Shown here: piece after piece, positions 2,918-33,859 of the stretch
Numbering within the stretch: the stretch's first letter is position 1
Layout: every line of letters starts with the position of its first letter
Assembly (NCBI GenBank): GCA_963555985.3
Contig: OY820591.1
Location: forward strand, 1,728,001-1,792,000
DNA length: 64,000 nucleotides
From: Dehalococcoidia bacterium
Lineage (GTDB): Bacteria; Chloroflexota; Dehalococcoidia; Bin125
Reading direction: 5' to 3'
Translations under genes and position numbers: made by a program
Notes under the pieces: model-generated
What the model was told of the DNA's origin: nothing
The model's input: the letters and a program-made list of their open reading frames with translations, nothing else
Databases searched by the model: none

Positions 2918-4089
2918 CTCGGCGCGACGGGCTGGCGAGTGATGATGTGTACTCCGTCGAGGGTCGGCAAGAGGGTCTCGATTGCTTGGCGAAGGTCGTC
3001 GAGGTGGTCTCGTTCCAGCGCCGACACCGCGACGGTACCGTCGCCAAAGTGCTCGAGCACGTCTGAGAGCGGGATCTCAAGAGCGTCGATCTTGTTGAGC
3101 ACGGTCAGCGTGGGGCGCTGATCGACGCCCAACTCGTGGAGCGTGTTCTCGACGCTGGCAGCCTGTTCGGCGGCGTCGGGGTGGGTGGCGTCGACGACGT
3201 GAAGGAGCAGGTCGGCCTCTTCCAGTTCTTCGAGCGTGGCGCGGAATGCCGCCACGAGTTGGGTCGGAAGCTTCTGGATGAAGCCGACGGTGTCGCTCAG
3301 GAGCACGGTGTGTTCCTCCGAGAGGCGGCAACGGCGGGTGGTTGGATCGAGGGTCTCGAAGAGCCGATCGCGAGCGGTGACCTTCGCATTGGTGAGCGCG
3401 TTCATCAGCGTGGACTTGCCCGCGTTGGTGTAGCCCACGAGCGCGACCAGCGGGATGCCGGCGCGGTCGCGGCGGCGGCGGTGCTGCTGGCGGTGGGTGC
3501 GGACACGATCGAGGTCTTGCTTGAGGCGCTTGATCTGGATGCGGATCAGGCGGCGGTCGGTTTCGAGCTGGGTCTCGCCCGGACCACGCGAGCCGATTGC
3601 GCCTTCCATGCGCTCAAGGTGCTCCCACTGTCCAGTCAGGCGGGGCAGCAGGTATTCGTGCTGGGCGAGGGCAACCTGGACGACGCCTTCGCGGGTGCGG
3701 GCTCGCTGGCTGAAAATGTCGAGAATCAATGCCGTCCGATCGATGATCTTGATCTCCAGCCGCTGTTCGAGGTTGCGCTGTTGGGCTGGAGTCAGTTCAT
3801 CGTCGAAGATGGCGACTGTGGCCTTGAGATCGTCGCGCAGCGCGGCGATCTCTTCCAATTTGCCCTTGCCCACGTAGGAACGCCGGTCGGGATGGCGCAG
3901 TCGTTGCGTGACCCGAGCCATCGGCATCGCGCCGGCGGTCTCGGCGAGTTGCGCGAGCTCTTCAACAGAAGCGTGAATGTTCCAGTGGGCGGAGCGGCGC
4001 GAGTCGACGCCGACAAGGATGGCGCGTTCGCGGGGAGGGCGAGTGGGGTGGTGTTTGCGGCGTCCGCCGCGGTTGCGAATGCGTGGGAT
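2914..4089 (-). CDS. hflX: Ribosome-associated GTPase HflX (probable non-canonical ATC start)
   Basis: GPGETQLETDRR, GYTNAGKST, LFETLDPT, DTVGFI and NKID motifs; the N-terminal ERAILVGV...EELAQLAETAG segment lies upstream of the first ATG (3927). Confidence 0.93.
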   Translation of the reverse strand: MPRIRNRGGRRKHHPTRPPRERAILVGVDSRRSAHWNIHASVEELAQLAETAGAMPMARVTQRLRHPDRRSYVGKGKLEEIAALRDDLKATVAIFDDELTPAQQRNLEQRLEIKIIDRTALILDIFSQRARTREGVVQVALAQHEYLLPRLTGQWEHLERMEGAIGSRGPGETQLETDRRLIRIQIKRLKQDLDRVRTHRQQHRRRRDRAGIPLVALVGYTNAGKSTLMNALTNAKVTARDRLFETLDPTTRRCRLSEEHTVLLSDTVGFIQKLPTQLVAAFRATLEELEEADLLLHVVDATHPDAAEQAASVENTLHELGVDQRPTLTVLNKIDALEIPLSDVLEHFGDGTVAVSALERDHLDDLRQAIETLLPTLDGVHIITRQPVAPS

Positions 4090-4339
4090 GGGAGTCTCCG
4101 TCGCTACGCCCGACCCGCAGATCGGGCGCGAATCAGTCTAGTCAGTGTGTGACGACGGAAACTAGATGCGCATCTCGCCACTTCTTTCTCGCTTGGTAAG
4201 GCTCTATCGAATTCTAGCGCCTGTACAGGCTCGCGGTTCTTGTGATTGCCATAGAAGCGAAGCGCGCCTCTGCTTCCAATCGAACAGGGAGTGGAGACGA
4301 AACAGAATTTCGCGGGGCGGTCCGGGAAAAACGGCGGGC

Positions 4340-4440
4340 GGTGTTCAGGGAGAATTTTTTTCTGGCAGGGTGGATCGCGGATCTCCTGTGCTGGCTGGGC
4401 TGAACGCTGTTCAGGGCGTTCAGCTTTGTTCAGGTTCGGT
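4340..4440. repeat. Dispersed ~100 bp intergenic element, copy 1 (copy 2 at 29812-29910)
   Basis: Collinear shared blocks GGTGTTCAGGGAGAA, T-run+TGGC, GATCTCCTGTG, GTTCAG..TTGTTCAGGTT. Confidence 0.7.
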
Positions 4441-17071: not shown

Positions 17072-19726
17072 TCATTCGCCGCCCATCGCGGAGTCGTCGT
17101 CGCCTGCGGTAGGTTCTCCGCATCTGCCCGTGTTCGAGTCGATCTTCTTGACGTCGTATTCGACAGCGGCCCATTGCATGAGGCAGTCCTTCATTTCGTG
17201 TTGATCCACTCCAAACTGCCGCTCCAAGGCACCCTCGGTGAACCACCAGGACCACCAGACCAACGTCTGGTGGTCAGCGAACTGACGATAATACGAAAGC
17301 AGCGACCGTTCACCACCCATGTGAACGAGCAATTCGGTCGCAATCGCGCCCAAGTCGTATGCGAAGTTCTCCAGATACTCTTCCAACTGTTCCACATCTG
17401 CGAGATCGCAATCAAATGTCTTCTCTGCCTTACGGCACAGCTTTTTCTTCGCCTCGACCCGGAAGCTGCTCCACCGCTCTGTCTGGAGCCGGGCATAGTC
17501 GACGTACTTTCGATCGAAGTATCGAGCATTTCCTTCGTACAGCCACTCCGGGGCAAGGGAAGCTTTATCGTATCCAGCATCAAAGGCATGCAGAAATCCC
17601 TCGTAGTCCGCCGAGGCCAACTGAAGAAGGTGGAAGTACTCGTGGGCTACGACTCTCTTCGTAACCTCGAGTCCAGGTTCGTTGTACATGTCATAACGAA
17701 ATCGGATGGCTGCGTGACCCGTGCGGGCCTGGGGAGGTGCAAGTGGGTTAACACTGTTTGGAGTACTTCTTGCCGCCCGTCCCGCTGCGTTCTTCTTCTC
17801 CGTCTCCAGGTCCAACACGTCGAAGGGGATCTCGTAGTGGTACTGCTCCATCAGCTGAGCGAAATCTTCAACGAAATACGGACCGACGTACAGGAAAGCG
17901 TCCTCCGACAGAGTTCCGCCGAATCGCGCTTCGGCGAAGTGCTCGATCGGCTTGATCGACGCCGCCAACTCGGCGATGGCATAGTGATCGTCCAGGAGGA
18001 AGTTCGCCTGCGCGCGCGTTTGATCGCCGGGCACGATCGCCAGGGCGTACTTGCCCTCGGCGAGCCGGTTGATGGAAGTGACGTCGATATAGTAGGTCCC
18101 GGGTTTGAGGACGAAGGTCGCGCCGGCGCCATAGGGTCCGAACCGACCGGCCCCGCTATCGCTGTAGTCATCGCCGCGCGACAGGCGGAACTCCACTGGC
18201 AGTTCGCTCGAGATTAAGTCGACTCGAACTTCGCGCTCCCCGTCCACCGTAAACGCGTATCGGTCAACCCGGCGCGACGGCGATGGATTGAGACTGAGGC
18301 AATCGCCCGATTCCAGGTGGCCATGCCCGACCAAACTATGCCGAACGTCCGTGGTGTCGATCGTGCCGAGTTCGATCGAGCCGCAGTCCCCGCCTGTTCC
18401 CGTCCGGCCATCGGAACCAAGTGAGACGCTGAGCTCATAGTTCCCAAGGCCGTCATAAGTTTGAGCGGCGACGATCTGGTAGTCGCCTGGGGCGAGGGAC
18501 TGGGTGATCTGGGAGCGCAACCCAGTTTCATCATCACCCGGAACAATTTCCCGTCCAGACCCATCCAGCAGGCGGACATACTCCGAGAAATCGCCGGAAC
18601 TCATCTTGATCGTCACCTCGGCGCTTTGCTCAAGCTTGAATGAGTAGAGGTCTGCGCGCTGTTCGGAGTCCAGCGGATCGCGGCAGTCGTCCCAGTAAGA
18701 GAGCAAGCCGGAGCGGTACGCGCCGAGCGAGCGCAACGTTCCCAGATCGTGGGCCGCGCAAGCGGCGACGCCGCCCTGCGTCACGCGCAGGCCGGCCGGC
18801 GGACTCGACTGACCATTGTCGTCGTCGCCCCAGCAATGGACCGCGCCTGACGCCGTCAGCCCGCAGGTGTAACCCCAGCCCGCGCTGACCTGCGTGAAAC
18901 GCCCGGCCGGCGGACTCGACTGGCCGGATTCGTCGTCGCCCCAGCACTGGACTGCGCCCGACGCCGTCAGCCCGCAGCTGTGTGTCCCGCCCGCGCTGAC
19001 CTGCGTGAAACGCCCGGCCGGCGGACTCCACTCGGTCGGCGGACTCCACTGGTCAAAGTTCACGTAGCCCCAGCACTGGACTTCCTTCGACGCCGTTAGC
19101 CCGCAGGTGTGCAACGAGCCCGCGCTGACCTGCGTGAAACGCCCGGCCGGCGGACTCGACTGGCCCGCCCAGTCGTCGCCCCAGCACTGGACCGCGCCCG
19201 AGGTCGTCAGCCCGCAGGTGTGCAACGCGCCCGCGCTGACCTGCGTGAAACGCCCGGCCGGCGGACTCGACTGGCCGAATTTGTCGTTGCCCCAGCACTG
19301 GACCGCGCTCGACGCCGTCACCCCGCAGCTGTGAAAAAAGCCTGCGCTGACTTGGGTGAAGCGACCCGCCGGCGGACTCGACTGGCCGTAGTCGTTCCGG
19401 CCCCAGCACTGCGCCGCGCCCGACGCCGTCACGCCGCAGCTGTGATGTACGTCCGCGCTGACCTGCGTGAAGCGCCCGGCCGGCGGACTCGACTGACCTT
19501 CGTCGTCCCCGCCCCAACACTGCACAGCGCCGGACTCCGTCACTACGCAGGTGTGATCCCCGCCCGCGCTGAGGGTTTCGACTAAACTCGATCCGCCCGA
19601 CTGCGCCTCTGCCGACCCGGCCTCAAGCCCCCAAACCGCAGCCGCAGCGACGACCGCGATGACCGCGAGCGCGGCCAGCCGCAGTTGCAATCTGAACCCA
19701 CCGTCTCCCATTTGCCGGAATGTCAT
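17072..19726 (-). CDS. Secreted multidomain protein: signal peptide, 7 RCC1-like repeats, two PPC-like domains, HExxH metallopeptidase-like C-terminus
   Basis: Hydrophobic N-terminus ending AEAQ; repeated VSAGxxHxCGLTASGAVQCWG; DLYSFKL/PGDYQI and PGTYYI modules; AHEYFH...PEWLYEG. Confidence 0.8.
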   Translation of the reverse strand: MTFRQMGDGGFRLQLRLAALAVIAVVAAAAVWGLEAGSAEAQSGGSSLVETLSAGGDHTCVVTESGAVQCWGGDDEGQSSPPAGRFTQVSADVHHSCGVTASGAAQCWGRNDYGQSSPPAGRFTQVSAGFFHSCGVTASSAVQCWGNDKFGQSSPPAGRFTQVSAGALHTCGLTTSGAVQCWGDDWAGQSSPPAGRFTQVSAGSLHTCGLTASKEVQCWGYVNFDQWSPPTEWSPPAGRFTQVSAGGTHSCGLTASGAVQCWGDDESGQSSPPAGRFTQVSAGWGYTCGLTASGAVHCWGDDDNGQSSPPAGLRVTQGGVAACAAHDLGTLRSLGAYRSGLLSYWDDCRDPLDSEQRADLYSFKLEQSAEVTIKMSSGDFSEYVRLLDGSGREIVPGDDETGLRSQITQSLAPGDYQIVAAQTYDGLGNYELSVSLGSDGRTGTGGDCGSIELGTIDTTDVRHSLVGHGHLESGDCLSLNPSPSRRVDRYAFTVDGEREVRVDLISSELPVEFRLSRGDDYSDSGAGRFGPYGAGATFVLKPGTYYIDVTSINRLAEGKYALAIVPGDQTRAQANFLLDDHYAIAELAASIKPIEHFAEARFGGTLSEDAFLYVGPYFVEDFAQLMEQYHYEIPFDVLDLETEKKNAAGRAARSTPNSVNPLAPPQARTGHAAIRFRYDMYNEPGLEVTKRVVAHEYFHLLQLASADYEGFLHAFDAGYDKASLAPEWLYEGNARYFDRKYVDYARLQTERWSSFRVEAKKKLCRKAEKTFDCDLADVEQLEEYLENFAYDLGAIATELLVHMGGERSLLSYYRQFADHQTLVWWSWWFTEGALERQFGVDQHEMKDCLMQWAAVEYDVKKIDSNTGRCGEPTAGDDDSAMGGE
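18790..19578 (-). repeat. Intragenic 111-bp tandem repeats (37-aa RCC1-like units)
   Basis: Near-identical units at 18881, 18992, 19121, 19232 and onward; one unit carries an extra 18 bp (WSPPTE). Confidence 0.9.
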
Positions 19727-29811: not shown

Positions 29812-29940
29812 GGTGTTCAGGGAGAAATTTATTTTGGCGTGCGGGGATGCTGATCTCCTGTGTTTTCTGGGGTTTTGGCGTTTGGGGTGTTCAGTCTTGT
29901 TCAGGTTTGGGTGTTCGATTGCGTTCGATTGCGTTCGATT
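29812..29940. repeat. Dispersed intergenic element copy 2, followed by a 10-bp tandem repeat (GTTCGATTGC x ~2.8)
   Basis: Collinear with 4340-4440; tandem unit at 29913-29940. Confidence 0.7.
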
Positions 29941-30009
29941 TTGGACGGATTTGTGCGGACTTGGACGGGGGCGTTCGGGTGGTGTTTGGGATGTGCGCGT
30001 GGTGTCACC

Positions 30010-30243
30010 CGTTGCGTCACCGGCCATTTCGGAGGCTCCTCAACGCAAGGAGCGCGGCACCTATTCGATGATCCACGTTGCGTCACCGGCCATTTCGGAG
30101 GCTCCTCAACGGTCCTCTACCCCAACCCGCACGGCTACTACCGTTGCGTCACCGGCCATTTCGGAGGCTCCTCAACGAGCGTTGCGCGTTGCGTATCCGT
30201 TCGCCATCGTTGCGTCACCGGCCATTTCGGAGGCTCCTCAACG
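30010..30243 (-). CRISPR. CRISPR array: 4 identical 36-bp repeats and 3 spacers of 30 bp
   Basis: CGTTGCGTCACCGGCCATTTCGGAGGCTCCTCAACG at 30010-30045, 30076-30111, 30142-30177 and 30208-30243; unique spacers; minus orientation inferred from the adjacent gene and anti-repeat. Confidence 0.95.
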
Positions 30244-31830
30244 AGATAGCAGCCGGAAGCCGGGCAGCGACGCCTGCGTTGAGTGACCTCCTCCATGATG
30301 GGCGAATTCTGGGCGGCTCCCCCGTTCCAGGTGGTTCGGGATCACAGCGGCCGGGGCGGGAACGCAACACCCGCCCTCTGTCAGAGACAGTTGTAAGACG
30401 TTACGCGCCGCGTTCACGTCGGCGTTGGCGGCGTAGCCGCAGGCGGGGCAGTCGAACGTCTCGCCCTGCCGCGCACCCGGCTCGATCGCGCCACACGCTG
30501 AACATGCTCGGGACGTGTAGGGGGCCGGGACCCTGACTAGATGCCCGCCGTGCTTCTCGGCTTTTTCTCCCACGAGCGTCAGGAATTGGCCCCACGTCTG
30601 TTCGCTGATGCTTCGGTTCAGTCCTCGTTTCTGTTTGACGTTCCGCCCCGGCTCCTCCACGGTGCCGGCAGCGCTCTTGGTCATGTTCGGAATCCGCAAG
30701 TCCTCGGCGGCGATGTGGTCGTAACGCCGCACCAGAGCCTGTGCGATGCGGTGATCCTGCTGGCGACGGCGGATGCGGTTCTTGCGCTTGAGCTTGGCGA
30801 GTCGGCGTTTTCGCCGCTCCAGGGTCTTGCTGCCTTTCCGCGACGGCCGGCGGCGGCTGCGCTTCTTGGTCTTGGTTGCGGTCAGCCGCTGCAAGCGCTT
30901 TTCTTCGCTGTCGTCGGGTTCGCGCTTCGGAATCATGATCCCGTCTGAGAGCGCGACGCGAGTGTTGACACCCAGGTCGAGACCGACCATTTTGCCGGCC
31001 TTGGGCAGCGGTTCACGCTCCACCTCACAGACCAGATCGACGTAGAGGCCGTTTGGAGTGAGGTTGAAGCGCACCTCTTTGGGCTTGCAATCGGGCAAGG
31101 TTCCGGGTGACTTCAGCTTGATCCGCAGGTAGTGCTTTCCCTTATGCTGCTGCGCCTTGTGAAACACCACCTCCGCGCGATGCCCGCAGGCCGAGCGCTT
31201 GACATTGCCAGCCTTGATCATCTTGGAGCCGATGCAGCGCCAGCGCTCGCGCTTCTGGTACTTCGGCATCCCGCGAATTCCACTGAGGTGCGCCTGGATG
31301 CTGTTCTGAGCCTTTGCAATCGCCCAGGCCAGCAATCCAAAGTCGAAATCCCGAAGCTCTGGGAACTCGGCGCGCAGAGGCTTGAGGTCGTAGGTCATGG
31401 AGTTGTAGCCGCGGAAGGCCGGCACGCCCGCTTTGGTTCTGCGGTAGTTGTTGGTCTCGGGCAGTTGACGGCGCTCGCGCTCGGCGTCGGTTCGCTCGCC
31501 TACCACCTCCCACCACTTTTGCCCGGTCTCCTCCTCATCTTCCTTCGTCCACCAGGGCGGCTTGTAGACCTTGCGGTAGACCGGCTCGCCGTTTTCGAGG
31601 ACTGGCTTGCCGTTCTTCATTCTCGGCACGATCCAGTACTGTCCCTGCGGGCCGATGCCCTGCTCCCGCATTCGGCGATAGTCGCGGAAGGCGCGGTATT
31701 CCTCGACGACGGCGTTGTAGATGGCGCACTGGACTCCGGCGATGCGGTGGAGCTTGTCGTAGTCGCTGCGGCGGGCGCGGACGGCGCGTCGCTGGAGGGT
31801 TCGGACGAGAGGTTTGGGGGTGTCGGGCAT
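30238..31830 (-). CDS. tnpB: CRISPR-associated TnpB/Cas12f-like RNA-guided RuvC nuclease (~530 aa)
   Basis: RuvC-I GLDLG, RuvC-II AAEDLRIPNM, GLNRSI, zinc finger CSAC...CPAC, RuvC-III NADVNAARN; start at 31830 (GAGG upstream) or 31872. Confidence 0.93.
   Translation of the reverse strand: MPDTPKPLVRTLQRRAVRARRSDYDKLHRIAGVQCAIYNAVVEEYRAFRDYRRMREQGIGPQGQYWIVPRMKNGKPVLENGEPVYRKVYKPPWWTKEDEEETGQKWWEVVGERTDAERERRQLPETNNYRRTKAGVPAFRGYNSMTYDLKPLRAEFPELRDFDFGLLAWAIAKAQNSIQAHLSGIRGMPKYQKRERWRCIGSKMIKAGNVKRSACGHRAEVVFHKAQQHKGKHYLRIKLKSPGTLPDCKPKEVRFNLTPNGLYVDLVCEVEREPLPKAGKMVGLDLGVNTRVALSDGIMIPKREPDDSEEKRLQRLTATKTKKRSRRRPSRKGSKTLERRKRRLAKLKRKNRIRRRQQDHRIAQALVRRYDHIAAEDLRIPNMTKSAAGTVEEPGRNVKQKRGLNRSISEQTWGQFLTLVGEKAEKHGGHLVRVPAPYTSRACSACGAIEPGARQGETFDCPACGYAANADVNAARNVLQLSLTEGGCCVPAPAAVIPNHLERGSRPEFAHHGGGHSTQASLPGFRLLSR
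30277..30395 (-). ncRNA. Putative tracrRNA/omegaRNA scaffold embedded in the 3' end of tnpB
   Basis: Anti-repeat at 30277-30291; hairpin 30354-30376 whose loop is complementary to the repeat 3' end; boundaries approximate. Confidence 0.65.
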
Positions 31831-31968
31831 CTGTTGGTTTGCCTCGTTTGGGGGATACTCATATGTTCGCATAGTTTGGGCTGAATGGCAAATGGGGGGT
31901 GCTGCGAGGTTGCTGGATTTGTCGTTCAGGAGCAGGCGATGATCCGCGCTCTAGTCGACACGCCGCAT

Positions 31969-32163: not shown

Positions 32164-33063
32164 CTAGGGGGAGGCGAGCGGGTAAGAGGAGAGCTCGAAT
32201 ACGCGGGCTGGTTGGCAGGGTTCGTAGTTGAGCCAGAGGGATTCTTGGCGGGTGGTGCGGACGGAGTGGGCTAGGCGGGGATTGGCGTCGACTCGGTTCC
32301 AGTTAGCGAAGAGGTCGTCGTAGAGGGTGGAACGGTAGCCGGAGATAGCGGCGCGGCCTTTGATTGTTTGGAGCAGTTCGGCGAGTTCGCGGTGATCGTC
32401 GTCGGTCATTTCTGCGCCGTAGGCGGCAGCGTCGCCGCGGGACTCGTGGACGTAGGGGGGATCGAGGTAGAAGAGCGTGTCGGGGGTGTCGTAGCGCTGA
32501 ATTATTTCGAGGGCGGGGGCGTTCTCGATCTGGATGCGTTGCAGGCGCTGGACGATCTCGGAGAGGCCCTCAACGGAGCCGAGCCAGCGCGAGACGGCGC
32601 CGGCCATTCCGGCGCGGGAGGTGAGCAGGCAATGCGCCCAGCGTCCTTCGGATGATGTCTGAGCCAAGCCGGTGCGGGTCTGGCGGGCGCGGACGAAGAA
32701 GCGGCGGGCGCGTTCGAGCGGGTCGGCACCGTTCGGGGGCTCGCAGGCTAAGGCCAGTTCCTCGCGCGAAAAGGGAGTGAGGCCGATCGCGCGGATGAGG
32801 TCGTCGCTGGTTTCGGGGTCTCGGAGGACGCGGAAGAAGTTGACCAGTTCGGAATCGAGGTCGTTGTAGGTTTCGACGGGGGCGGGGGCGCGGTTGATGA
32901 TCACGGCGGCGGAACCGCCGAAGACGTCGCAGAAGTGGCGCTCGTCGGTGGGCAGGTTGGGGAGGATGAAGTCGAGGTGGCTGAATTTGCCGCCGTACCA
33001 GCCGAAGGCGATCATGCACTTTCGGCGTCGGGCGGCGTTCTTGACAATGCGGCGGGTAACCAT
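32164..33063 (-). CDS. DNA adenine methyltransferase (Dam/D12 class), no cognate endonuclease seen
   Basis: WYGGK, DVFGGS, YNDL, FYLDPPY motifs. Confidence 0.92.
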   Translation of the reverse strand: MVTRRIVKNAARRRKCMIAFGWYGGKFSHLDFILPNLPTDERHFCDVFGGSAAVIINRAPAPVETYNDLDSELVNFFRVLRDPETSDDLIRAIGLTPFSREELALACEPPNGADPLERARRFFVRARQTRTGLAQTSSEGRWAHCLLTSRAGMAGAVSRWLGSVEGLSEIVQRLQRIQIENAPALEIIQRYDTPDTLFYLDPPYVHESRGDAAAYGAEMTDDDHRELAELLQTIKGRAAISGYRSTLYDDLFANWNRVDANPRLAHSVRTTRQESLWLNYEPCQPARVFELSSYPLASP

Positions 33064-33166
33064 CGGCGGCCTCCTGGGACTCCGTGCATACGTTCGCATG
33101 AATTGTCCGGTTTGGCAAGTGGGTTGGGTGGTCTGTACATAGTGGATGGAGGTGTGCAGAGGATGT

Positions 33167-33859
33167 CTAGTTTGTGTCGCCTTCGCCGGGTAGGAGATCG
33201 GGGCGTCTGGCGCGGGTGCGGCGGCGTTGTTGCTGCCGACGCCAGTGTTCGATTTGGGCGTGGTGTCCGCTGAGGAGGATGTCGGGGACTCGCCAGCCGC
33301 GAAACTCCGGCGGTCTGGTGTATTGGGGGTATTCCAGCAGGCCGTCGGAGAAGGATTCGTCGAGGGCGGACTCGGCCGAGCCGAGCGCTCCGGGTTGGAG
33401 GCGGACAACGGCGTCGACGACTACGGCGGCAGCCGGCTCTCCACCTGAGAGCACGTAATCGCCAATCGAGATTTCAGCGTCGGCGAGGTGTTCGCGGACT
33501 CGCTCGTCGATGCCCTCGTAGCGGGCGCAGAGGAGGATGAGGCGATCTTCGCTGGCGAGTTCGCGCACGATTGCCTGGTCCAGCCGGCGTCCCTGGGGGG
33601 TAAGGAGGACGGCGCGGCCGGGATTGCCTTGCGTCCGCAGCGATTCGACGGCTCGGAACCAGGGTTCGGGGCGCATGACCATGCCCGCGCCGCCGCCGTA
33701 GGGCGGCGCGTCTACGCTTCGGTGTCTGTCGGTGGTGTAGTCGCGTAGATCGTGCAGGCGGAGATCGAGGATTCCGGCTGAGCGGGCGCGCCGGATGATG
33801 CTCGCCTCGAAGGCGCCGGCGAGCAGTTGCGGAAAGATCGTGAGGATGTCGATCCGCAT
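33167..33859 (-). CDS. trmD: tRNA (guanine37-N1)-methyltransferase
   Basis: [37 protein letters not shown]. Confidence 0.98.

Follow-up and report, generated by a model that had tools for sequence, protein, structure and literature searches.

The window analysed here is a stretch of 64,000 nucleotides (nt) from the genome of a Dehalococcoidia bacterium (GCA_963555985.3, contig OY820591.1, positions 1,728,001 to 1,792,000). On its minus strand lie a gene for a TnpB-family nuclease (protein P0001) and, directly downstream, a short array of repeats and spacers. The two are probably parts of a type V-N (V-U4, Cas12n)-like CRISPR (clustered and regularly interspaced short palindromic repeats) locus that derives from TnpB and combines the array with a scaffold RNA encoded in the tail of the nuclease open reading frame (ORF). 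The elements of this reading that are most likely right are the scaffold RNA in the ORF tail, the position of the guide 3' of the repeat and the functional link between gene and array. Comparison among related loci supports well a predicted pseudoknot between the loop of a GC-rich hairpin in this tail (stem 1) and the 3' end of the repeat. A second pairing, in which the segment 30291-30277 would act as a true anti-repeat to the 5' part of the repeat, is plausible but unproven on the sequence evidence. The parts of the locus, in window positions, are as follows.

30238 to 31872, minus strand: TnpB-family, Cas12n-like nuclease ORF P0001, recognised by Pfam, PDB, NCBIfam and PADLOC matches and by invariant columns
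30238 to 30381, minus strand: C-terminal tail of the ORF after RuvC-III (residues 498-544), doubling as the predicted trans-activating CRISPR RNA (tracrRNA)/omegaRNA-like scaffold
30354 to 30376, minus strand: stem 1, a GC stem of 7 base pairs (bp) (30376-30370 / 30360-30354) with a 9-nt loop, TGTTGCGTT (30369-30361), the predicted pseudoknot strand
30306 to 30353, minus strand: central scaffold with predicted internal stems (stem 2-like), drawn from folds only and not from comparison
30277 to 30305, minus strand: putative anti-repeat with its core at 30291-30277, co-linear in RNAduplex with repeat nt 1-29 (7+6+4+5 bp)
30244 to 30276, minus strand: 33-nt linker from the putative anti-repeat to repeat 1, with a small CCGG-CTT-CCGG hairpin
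30010 to 30243, minus strand: CRISPR mini-array in which the 36-nt repeat CGTTGAGGAGCCTCCGAAATGGCCGGTGACGCAACG occurs in four identical copies, with three spacers of 30 nt

Covariation of the stem-1 loop with the repeat

Stem 1 has the form GGGCGGG-TGTTGCGTT-CCCGCCC, and its loop can pair with the final 9 nt of the repeat, GACGCAACG, at nine of nine positions (seven Watson-Crick and two G-U pairs), exactly as an earlier note on this DNA had described it. The hairpin is present in both the minimum-free-energy and the centroid folds. Pairing of this quality with the repeat 9-mer occurs, in a fixed register, at two minus-strand sites in the window (site counts of this kind are post hoc), and 13 of 500 shuffles of the 178-nt tracrRNA zone match the observed score for the 3' part of the repeat when any sub-block is allowed. 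Taken on this locus alone, each of the two complementarities is moderately unlikely by chance, which is suggestive and not decisive. The loop match becomes convincing because the loop covaries with the repeat in other loci.

Five lineages with a comparable array were available. In the window locus (L001), L002 and L008, the strongest hairpin after RuvC-III has a GC stem of 6-7 bp and a 9-nt loop and starts 6-12 nt past the anchor residue; these three hairpins were located without using the repeat. L006 has a version with a 4-bp stem at the equivalent place, and L007 one with a 12-nt loop, 75 nt further on. The loops and the repeat 3' ends vary between the five lineages, yet agree inside each locus, the matched pairs being GTTGCG/CGCAAC, GTGTAC/GTACAC, GTTGAG/CTCAAC, GTTCCGGTC/GACTGGAAC and GAAACG/CGTTTC. 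The complementary block stops at a distance of 0-1 nt (6 nt in L008) from the point where repeat and spacer join. When every loop is scored against every repeat, the diagonal of the five-by-five matrix sums to 71, a value reached by 1 of 120 permutations (the identity only; two of the five cells are partly circular, as detailed below), and the best derangement reaches 38, or 43 when 16-nt repeat tails are used.

Sister loci without an array point the same way. L176-L178 and L010 have the same stem 1, and the complement of its loop (AAGTCCC or AAGCCCC) lies exactly at the end of the homology between loci, which we take to be the junction of omegaRNA scaffold and guide. Because the loop covaries with the repeat and the sister loci place the loop complement at this junction, the repeat-then-spacer orientation can be fixed and the gene linked to the array, so that what the earlier note had deduced on both counts is borne out. 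A general pseudoknot test on the array-less relatives was dropped as too weak (mean best loop complement 11.85, against 11.09 for shuffled loops); a hairpin of at least 5 bp occurs near the anchor in 71 of 180 loci, 9 of which stand out. The multi-copy genes of L176-L178 (genomes G898, G641 and G684; at least four matches each in G898 and G641) encode TnpB proteins of 392 amino acids (aa), and their compact scaffold of ~95 nt, ending in ...TATATAAGYCCC, is a candidate transposon-type comparator for the question of the split RNA.

The nuclease and its gene

Judged by its profile matches and conserved residues, P0001 is a TnpB-family, Cas12n-like nuclease. The ORF runs from 31872 to 30238 and encodes 544 aa (the database form begins at M15 and has 530), and its stop codon, TGA (30240-30238), falls within repeat 1. 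The Pfam domains OrfB_IS605 and Cas12f1-like_TNB are both present. NCBIfam guided_TnpB scores 177 bits (cut-off 100), while the scores for the IS200_TnpB and IS607_TnpB 'exception' models stay under the cut-offs of those models. The top PADLOC model is Cas12u4, at 157.8 bits, followed by a Cas12f model at 156. The best solved relative is RdCas12n (PDB 9J09, E 2e-24, 89 bits; TnpB-type chains reach 70), with which P0001 has an insertion of the form MTxSAxGTxExPGxNV in common. In an alignment of 16 relatives, the RuvC residues D299/E390/D485 and the zinc finger CxxC...CxxC (C457/C460/C475/C478) are invariant. P0001 is presumably an active nuclease, since its D-E-D triad is intact.

RuvC-III of P0001 aligns up to residue 492 of the 540-aa RdCas12n, and the tails of the two proteins are thus alike in length. 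The P0001 tail beyond RuvC-III spans 47-51 aa, in a layout like that of RdCas12n, and two relatives, P0003 and P0122, which are 71% identical, keep its patches GGCC, PEFA and TQxSLPGF. The tails of these two read GGCCDPA in place of GGCCVPA, so the last two bases of the loop differ there, and a matching change would be expected at repeat nt 28-29.

The gene is single-copy in a genome of 3.33 Mb, in which Cas1 (PF01867) was not found (completeness 96%). Its neighbours are the housekeeping genes hisD, NfeD, D12 methyltransferase, trmD and ftsZ, and no transposase was seen among those scanned. Several copies, a transposase or element ends, and one guide at the right end would mark a mobile element, and the nuclease locus does not fit that description; the guide position downstream of the gene is taken by the repeat-spacer array. 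Directly upstream, between the nuclease gene and trmD, the D12 gene (32164-33408, minus strand) encodes a D12-class N6-adenine DNA methyltransferase.

The array and the proposed guide RNA

The four repeats (30243-30208, 30177-30142, 30111-30076 and 30045-30010) follow directly on the gene on the same strand, separated by 30-nt spacers, and the repeat does not occur elsewhere in the genome. Its 3' end, GACGCAACG, adjoins the spacer in each copy as the predicted partner of the pseudoknot. One further segment follows the array.

29980 to 30009, minus strand: post-array sequence, possibly a fourth, terminal guide, starting with GGTGACACCACG

GGTGACACCACG is itself a copy of the repeat 3' 12-mer at 10 of 12 positions (30009-29998), and another 10/12 copy lies in spacer 1 (30198-30187); apart from these and the one described below, the window holds seven such sites on both strands. 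The two degenerate copies may be traces of slippage or of unit addition. Two L007 spacers contain the repeat 3' 12-mer as 9/12 copies, similarly offset by 21-22 nt. Downstream of the array lies an A/C-rich stretch of low complexity (29860-29990) with a 10-nt tandem repeat at 29913-29940; in one public run 20 nt are inserted behind 29925, and a number of linked base differences lie at 29883-29909.

In the mechanism proposed here, the last ~145 nt of the ORF, which encode the C-terminal tail, would serve at the same time as a tracrRNA/omegaRNA-like scaffold. Pairing of the stem-1 (30376-30354) loop with the last 6-9 nt of the repeat beside the spacer is shown by the covariation, and the resulting pseudoknot would seat the guide in the protein. 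The segment 30305-30277 may pair with the 5' two-thirds of the repeat and act as a tether that holds the CRISPR RNA (crRNA) on the scaffold. Joined in cis to repeat 1, this segment would close a long stem through the 33-nt linker, which in the predicted fold resembles the loop of a natural single guide. The guide itself would be the 30-nt spacer 3' of each repeat. A search of Rfam gave no match at E <= 1.

The putative anti-repeat

The segment 30291-30277, GGAGGTCACTCAACG, pairs with repeat nt 1-15, CGTTGAGGAGCCTCC, at 13 of 15 positions (12 Watson-Crick and one G-U), in agreement with the count in the earlier note. At least 13 of 15 pairs with the 15-mer are formed at three minus-strand sites in the window, and 12 Watson-Crick pairs at the flagged site only; the observed score for the repeat's 5' part is reached in 30 of 500 shuffles of the 178-nt zone (any sub-block). 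When the upstream 90 nt are folded with RNAduplex against repeat nt 1-29, the energy is -32.7 kcal/mol, equalled by 3 of 300 shuffles, or by a fraction of 0.023 in a second run. Across these tests the shuffle p of the pairing is about 0.01-0.06. The duplex of 30305-30277 with repeat nt 1-29 has 22 bp in four blocks, and the final 7 nt of the repeat stay available to the loop. L006, L007 and L008 have co-linear duplexes of a similar kind; L002 has no co-linear full-span duplex, and one arises in 27% of its shuffles.

Expression

Six public sequencing runs contain part of the stretch. DNA runs X1-X3, which may include the source sample, have the same spacers wherever the array is covered. One contig comes from an RNA library.

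30214 to 30341, strand not given by the data: 128-nt contig from a metatranscriptome (RNA) library, run X6, with one difference

This contig reaches from the central scaffold through the putative anti-repeat and the linker into repeat 1, as far as nt 30; its end inside the repeat is where DNA contigs break too. Gene parts left uncovered in run X6 are no evidence of absence.

Points against the proposed reading

A number of observations weigh against the locus working as proposed. The loops of L006 and L007 were located through their complementarity to the repeat, which makes their two cells on the matrix diagonal partly circular. The 3' boundary of the L008 repeat is uncertain: the repeat has two copies, the second degenerate, and its complement lies 6 nt inside the assumed end. 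All nine pairs at once are sterically impossible for a 9-nt loop, and RdCas12n forms three. The 193-nt fold is not stabler than shuffles (z = -1.03). No sigma-70-like promoter was found in a pattern scan and no terminator-like site on the minus strand; the sole terminator-like site is on the plus strand and scores under the shuffle mean. The RNA contig is a weak hint of expression, as it is strandless, stops short of stem 1 and may be carry-over of DNA.

On the protein side, Cas12u4 leads the Cas12f model by 1.8 bits only (PADLOC), the family profile scores a TnpB-type chain at 210 bits and RdCas12n at 197 bits, and the phmmer alignment to RdCas12n covers P0001 residues 291-493 only (against 279-492 of 540), with no sequence similarity before residue 291. 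Since similarity is confined to the C-terminal half and the scores lie close to those of TnpB and Cas12f models, the placement of P0001 within Cas12n proper is tentative.

The remaining points concern the anti-repeat. Its scores within each locus are not better than those across loci, whether as ungapped local scores or as RNAduplex energies; co-linear full-span duplexes form in 58-92% of shuffles of the four loci that show one; and a scan of the whole locus finds ungapped matches equal to or better than the anti-repeat elsewhere in the gene. Covariation was rejected as evidence for the anti-repeat: in these GC-rich loci, local scores, RNAduplex, base-pair and span statistics and whole-locus scans all leave pairs from one locus indistinguishable from cross-locus or shuffled pairs. 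The earlier note had taken both pairings together as a split omegaRNA/tracrRNA and had proposed covariation in homologous loci as a check. The pseudoknot half of that proposal stands, with five lineages behind it and loop and repeat 3' end agreeing as in 1 of 120 permutations, but the anti-repeat half gains no support from the controls or from other loci.

Alternative explanations

It is possible, if less probable than the reading proposed above, that the pseudoknot is right and that 30291-30277 is the vestigial 3' end of an ancestral omegaRNA, that is, the old pseudoknot strand, followed by the position of the old guide. The complementarity of the segment to the 5' end of the repeat would then follow from the mutually complementary ends of the repeat. 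The segment may still serve as a tether by way of a strand swap, the old strand being taken up by the repeat 5' end so that the loop becomes free to bind the repeat 3' end. In keeping with such an origin, 30288-30277 (GGTCACTCAACG) is identical to the repeat 3' 12-mer at 10 of 12 positions, with the two further 10/12 copies nearby, in spacer 1 and after repeat 4. From the start of stem 1 to 30277 the distance is 100 nt, close to the ~92-95 nt at which sister omegaRNA scaffolds end (hand count). L001, L002 and L006 have repeats with self-complementary termini, as does L007 to a weak degree, and by hand alignment the loop matches the repeat end at 9 of 9 positions and the segment more poorly, with an internal mismatch. 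The copy of the repeat 3' 12-mer is seen in one lineage only, however, as no copy of at least 9/12 lies between stem 1 and repeat 1 in L002, L006, L007 or L008. The likeness to the repeat is moreover limited to the last 12 of 36 nt, the rest agreeing at 7 of 24 by hand count, and present function as an anti-repeat is compatible with a vestigial origin.

A broader version of this idea, which we consider rather unlikely as a whole, would make the locus a snapshot of an omegaRNA in the course of splitting, with the old strand at 30288-30277, the old guide slot in the 33-nt linker, a stem-1 loop re-tuned to the repeats of the array, loading by strand swap, and, in arrays of this clade that lack adaptation genes, spacers copied from genes of the host itself (here and in one relative) that might serve binding or regulation of host genes rather than defence. 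Loading of this kind would account for the mutual complementarity of the repeat ends in several lineages.

If stem 1 did not form, 30369-30354 (TGTTGCGTTCCCGCCC) could be a linear anti-repeat making a 16-nt duplex with repeat nt 21-36 in the classic tracrRNA:crRNA style. Repeat finding returns 15-nt arms, 80% complementary, between 30354-30368 and each repeat, and over repeat nt 21-36 the ungapped score is 20, as high as that of the 5' anti-repeat. In L002 and L007, however, the complementarity ends after 7-9 nt, before the 3' arm of the stem (hand alignment), the stem is kept by differing sequences in each lineage (GGGCGGG, GACGGG, GGGGC, GCCGGC), and the hairpin loop is used by sister omegaRNAs and by RdCas12n (PMC12216341), all of which makes a linear pairing improbable.

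It is more doubtful again that the system would use crRNA only, with the repeat folding through its own ends (CGTTG...CAACG) and being processed without a tracrRNA, and with the intragenic matches as leftovers or chance. The self-complementary repeat termini of three to four lineages would suit such a system, as would the unmapped tracrRNA ends, and some miniature type V effectors, such as Cas12m, work without a tracrRNA according to a review (PMC11641405). Against it, the loop and the repeat 3' end covary, the position of stem 1 is conserved with omegaRNA-bearing sisters, and the closest characterised relatives, Cas12n and TnpB, require a long scaffold RNA (PMC12216341).

Least probable of all is a decaying or inactive remnant whose complementarities have no present function: the array has four repeats only, a search of the 96%-complete genome gave no Cas1, none of the spacers found a protospacer in phages or plasmids, one spacer is self-matching and the related locus L005 has degenerate repeats. 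Against this, the ORF and its catalytic residues are intact, all four repeats agree in sequence, loop and repeat match perfectly and an RNA-library contig lies over the scaffold/repeat junction.

Relatives and sister loci

The closest relative of P0001 is P0003, at 71% identity, joined by one fragment (P0122). All other relatives are at most 48% identical, and over the C-terminal half only; the N-terminal ~150 residues have no relatives beyond P0003. The homologue searches covered sets of 61, 401, 121, 99 and 401 genomes together with metagenome, viral and genome-contig scans, and they gave 204 loci, some of them duplicates. At E <= 1e-20, homologues are absent from all 36 genomes of the same family. 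Searches at family level, centred on G181 and G382, returned array-less relatives only, and the genome-contig scan added one distant locus. P0145 and P0146, considered as RdCas12n itself for a positive control, are not RdCas12n.

An array of 36/37-nt repeats with a period of 65-67 nt directly follows the gene in six loci (the window, L002, L005, L006, L007 and L008). These are counted as five lineages, the L005 and L006 proteins being 92% identical; the L005 repeats are degenerate. In a FastTree phylogeny of 157 dereplicated proteins, built without reference Cas12n sequences, the six array loci fall inside one clade of 13 tips that also contains the array-less L010, L093, L094 and L123 and the multi-copy, transposon-type L176-L178. 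The window protein sits on a long branch with weak support, and no well-supported set contains it.

In none of 80 metagenome loci does an array lie in the 700 nt downstream of the gene, loci with <150 nt of downstream sequence having been left out of the count. Repeats of other periods (57-77 nt) occur in six of 80 viral loci, among which L109 and L128 were viewed and L121 was judged by its repeat seed. On the viral contig of L128, nine or more 37-nt repeats with spacers of varying length lie at ~3770-4370, about 280 nt downstream of a distant TnpB-like gene; pairing tests there gave no clear loop or anti-repeat signal.

Spacer targets

One spacer of the window array has a close match, and the match is to the bacterium's own chromosome.

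30046 to 30075, minus strand: spacer 3, matching the chromosome at 29 of 30 positions (G000:C1:139428-139399)

The one mismatch falls on nt 24 of the spacer, and the matched stretch lies antisense to an APH-family phosphotransferase gene, which adjoins a class-III aminotransferase gene. The 5' flank of this self-protospacer, ...GGCG, ends in CG like the repeat itself and reads GCG, not AAN. No credible protospacers were found in phages and plasmids, where the best E-values are 0.2-0.9. In L007, whose array has ~16 repeats, the spacer at 2930-2961 matches its own chromosome at 32 of 32 positions (G382:C1:2410496-2410527; L206 3997-4028), a figure that counts 2 nt and 1 nt of flanking repeat, and a PF04199 'putative cyclase' gene lies antisense to the match. 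No spacer of L002 or L006 matches its own genome. Array-like repeats at C1:425780 and C9:16063 of the window's genome are, by eye, in-frame tandem repeats of a protein-coding region and not CRISPR. Self-matching spacers thus occur in two loci and, with the lack of Cas1 checked for the window genome only, raise the question of how spacers are gained and what they target.

Comparison with known systems

In RdCas12n the tracrRNA overlaps the ORF, and base pairs link nt -4 to -2 of the repeat to nt -168 to -170 in the loop of stem 1 (PMC12216341); a review places the tracrRNA inside the Cas12n mRNA (PMC11641405). An L-shaped core of stems 1 and 2 with a pseudoknot is described as common to TnpB, RdCas12n and Cas12f1 (PMC12216341). 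TranC effectors are described as TnpB-clade proteins of ~300-600 aa with CRISPR arrays (PMC13565253; bioRxiv 10.1101/2025.09.28.678669), in which tracrRNA and crRNA arise from a functional split of the omegaRNA (Jin et al., Cell 2025, as cited in PMC13565253). A defining trait of TranC is the use of omegaRNA-type as well as CRISPR-type guides. Since an ORF-embedded tracrRNA with a pseudoknot is published for Cas12n (PMC12216341) and a split omegaRNA for TranC, the novelty of the reading in the earlier note is overstated.

Likeness to Cas12n (V-N, formerly V-U4; RdCas12n, PDB 9J09/9UDI, and AcCas12n) extends over several features. P0001 agrees with the type V-N pattern of one TnpB-like effector of 400-700 aa that has a RuvC D-E-D triad and a zinc finger. 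P0001 has 544 aa and RdCas12n 540; in both, RuvC-III ends ~50 aa before the C-terminus and the MTxSAxGTxExPGxNV insertion is present, and Cas12u4 is the best PADLOC profile of P0001. The array lies beside the gene, and Cas1 was not found in the window's genome. The tracrRNA, predicted here, overlaps the ORF, the pseudoknot joins the last nucleotides of the repeat to the stem-1 loop, and a repeat:anti-repeat stem, putative here, precedes the pseudoknot (PMC12216341); this last comparison depends on reading stem 5 of RdCas12n as the repeat:anti-repeat stem, which is our interpretation. In contrast to RdCas12n, similarity is detectable over P0001 residues 291-493 only, the N-terminal ~150 residues are without relatives beyond P0003, the pseudoknot complementarity is 6-9 nt where 3 bp are resolved in RdCas12n (PMC12216341), and the anti-repeat pairs with the 5' part of the repeat, not with the 20 nt kept in the RdCas12n crRNA. 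The sole self-protospacer is flanked by GCG, whereas the protospacer-adjacent motif of Cas12n is 5'-AAN. Cas12n is further marked by a REC extension and a WED expansion in the RdCas12n structure, and P0001 has no sequence similarity to RdCas12n before residue 291.

TnpB and its omegaRNA (IS200/IS605; L176-L178, L010 and ISDra2 TnpB, PDB 8H1J and 8EXA) resemble the locus in other respects. The family profile aligns full-length with ISDra2 TnpB, P0001 is above the NCBIfam guided_TnpB cut-off, the scaffold RNA begins in the 3' end of the ORF and measures ~92-100 nt, and the strand immediately 5' of the guide is the partner of the stem-1 loop. Unlike TnpB genes, the gene here is single-copy with no transposase seen among its scanned neighbours, a repeat-spacer array replaces the single flanking guide, and P0001 has N-terminal extensions. 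Like TranC, the locus joins a TnpB-clade effector to a CRISPR array, and array and transposon-type members appear interleaved in the weakly supported tree, but P0001 matches the solved LaTranC at E 1.5e-7, much more weakly than RdCas12n. Cas12f (Un1Cas12f1, AsCas12f1) has a scaffold core of stems 1 and 2 and a pseudoknot next to a 3' guide (PMC12216341), but acts as a dimer, and the PDB matches of P0001 to Cas12f chains are weaker (E 1e-13 to 1e-1).

Elsewhere in the window, and unrelated to the locus, overlapping tandem arrays of 111-129-nt units lie at 18792-19572 (~2 to 4.6 copies, 80-88% identity).

Implications

The analysis gives a concrete guide-RNA design for a rare and very divergent miniature nuclease, consisting of the scaffold 30376-30277, the tether and repeat, and a guide 3' of the repeat. 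It also adds comparative support to the RdCas12n structure, in that the pseudoknot of stem-1 loop and repeat end is conserved and covaries across the TnpB/Cas12n clade. Transposon forms and array forms occur together in this clade, which makes it useful for studying how an omegaRNA becomes a tracrRNA and a crRNA. The locus itself would be a new, divergent member of the known Cas12n/V-U4 system, in an evolutionary position like that of TranC.

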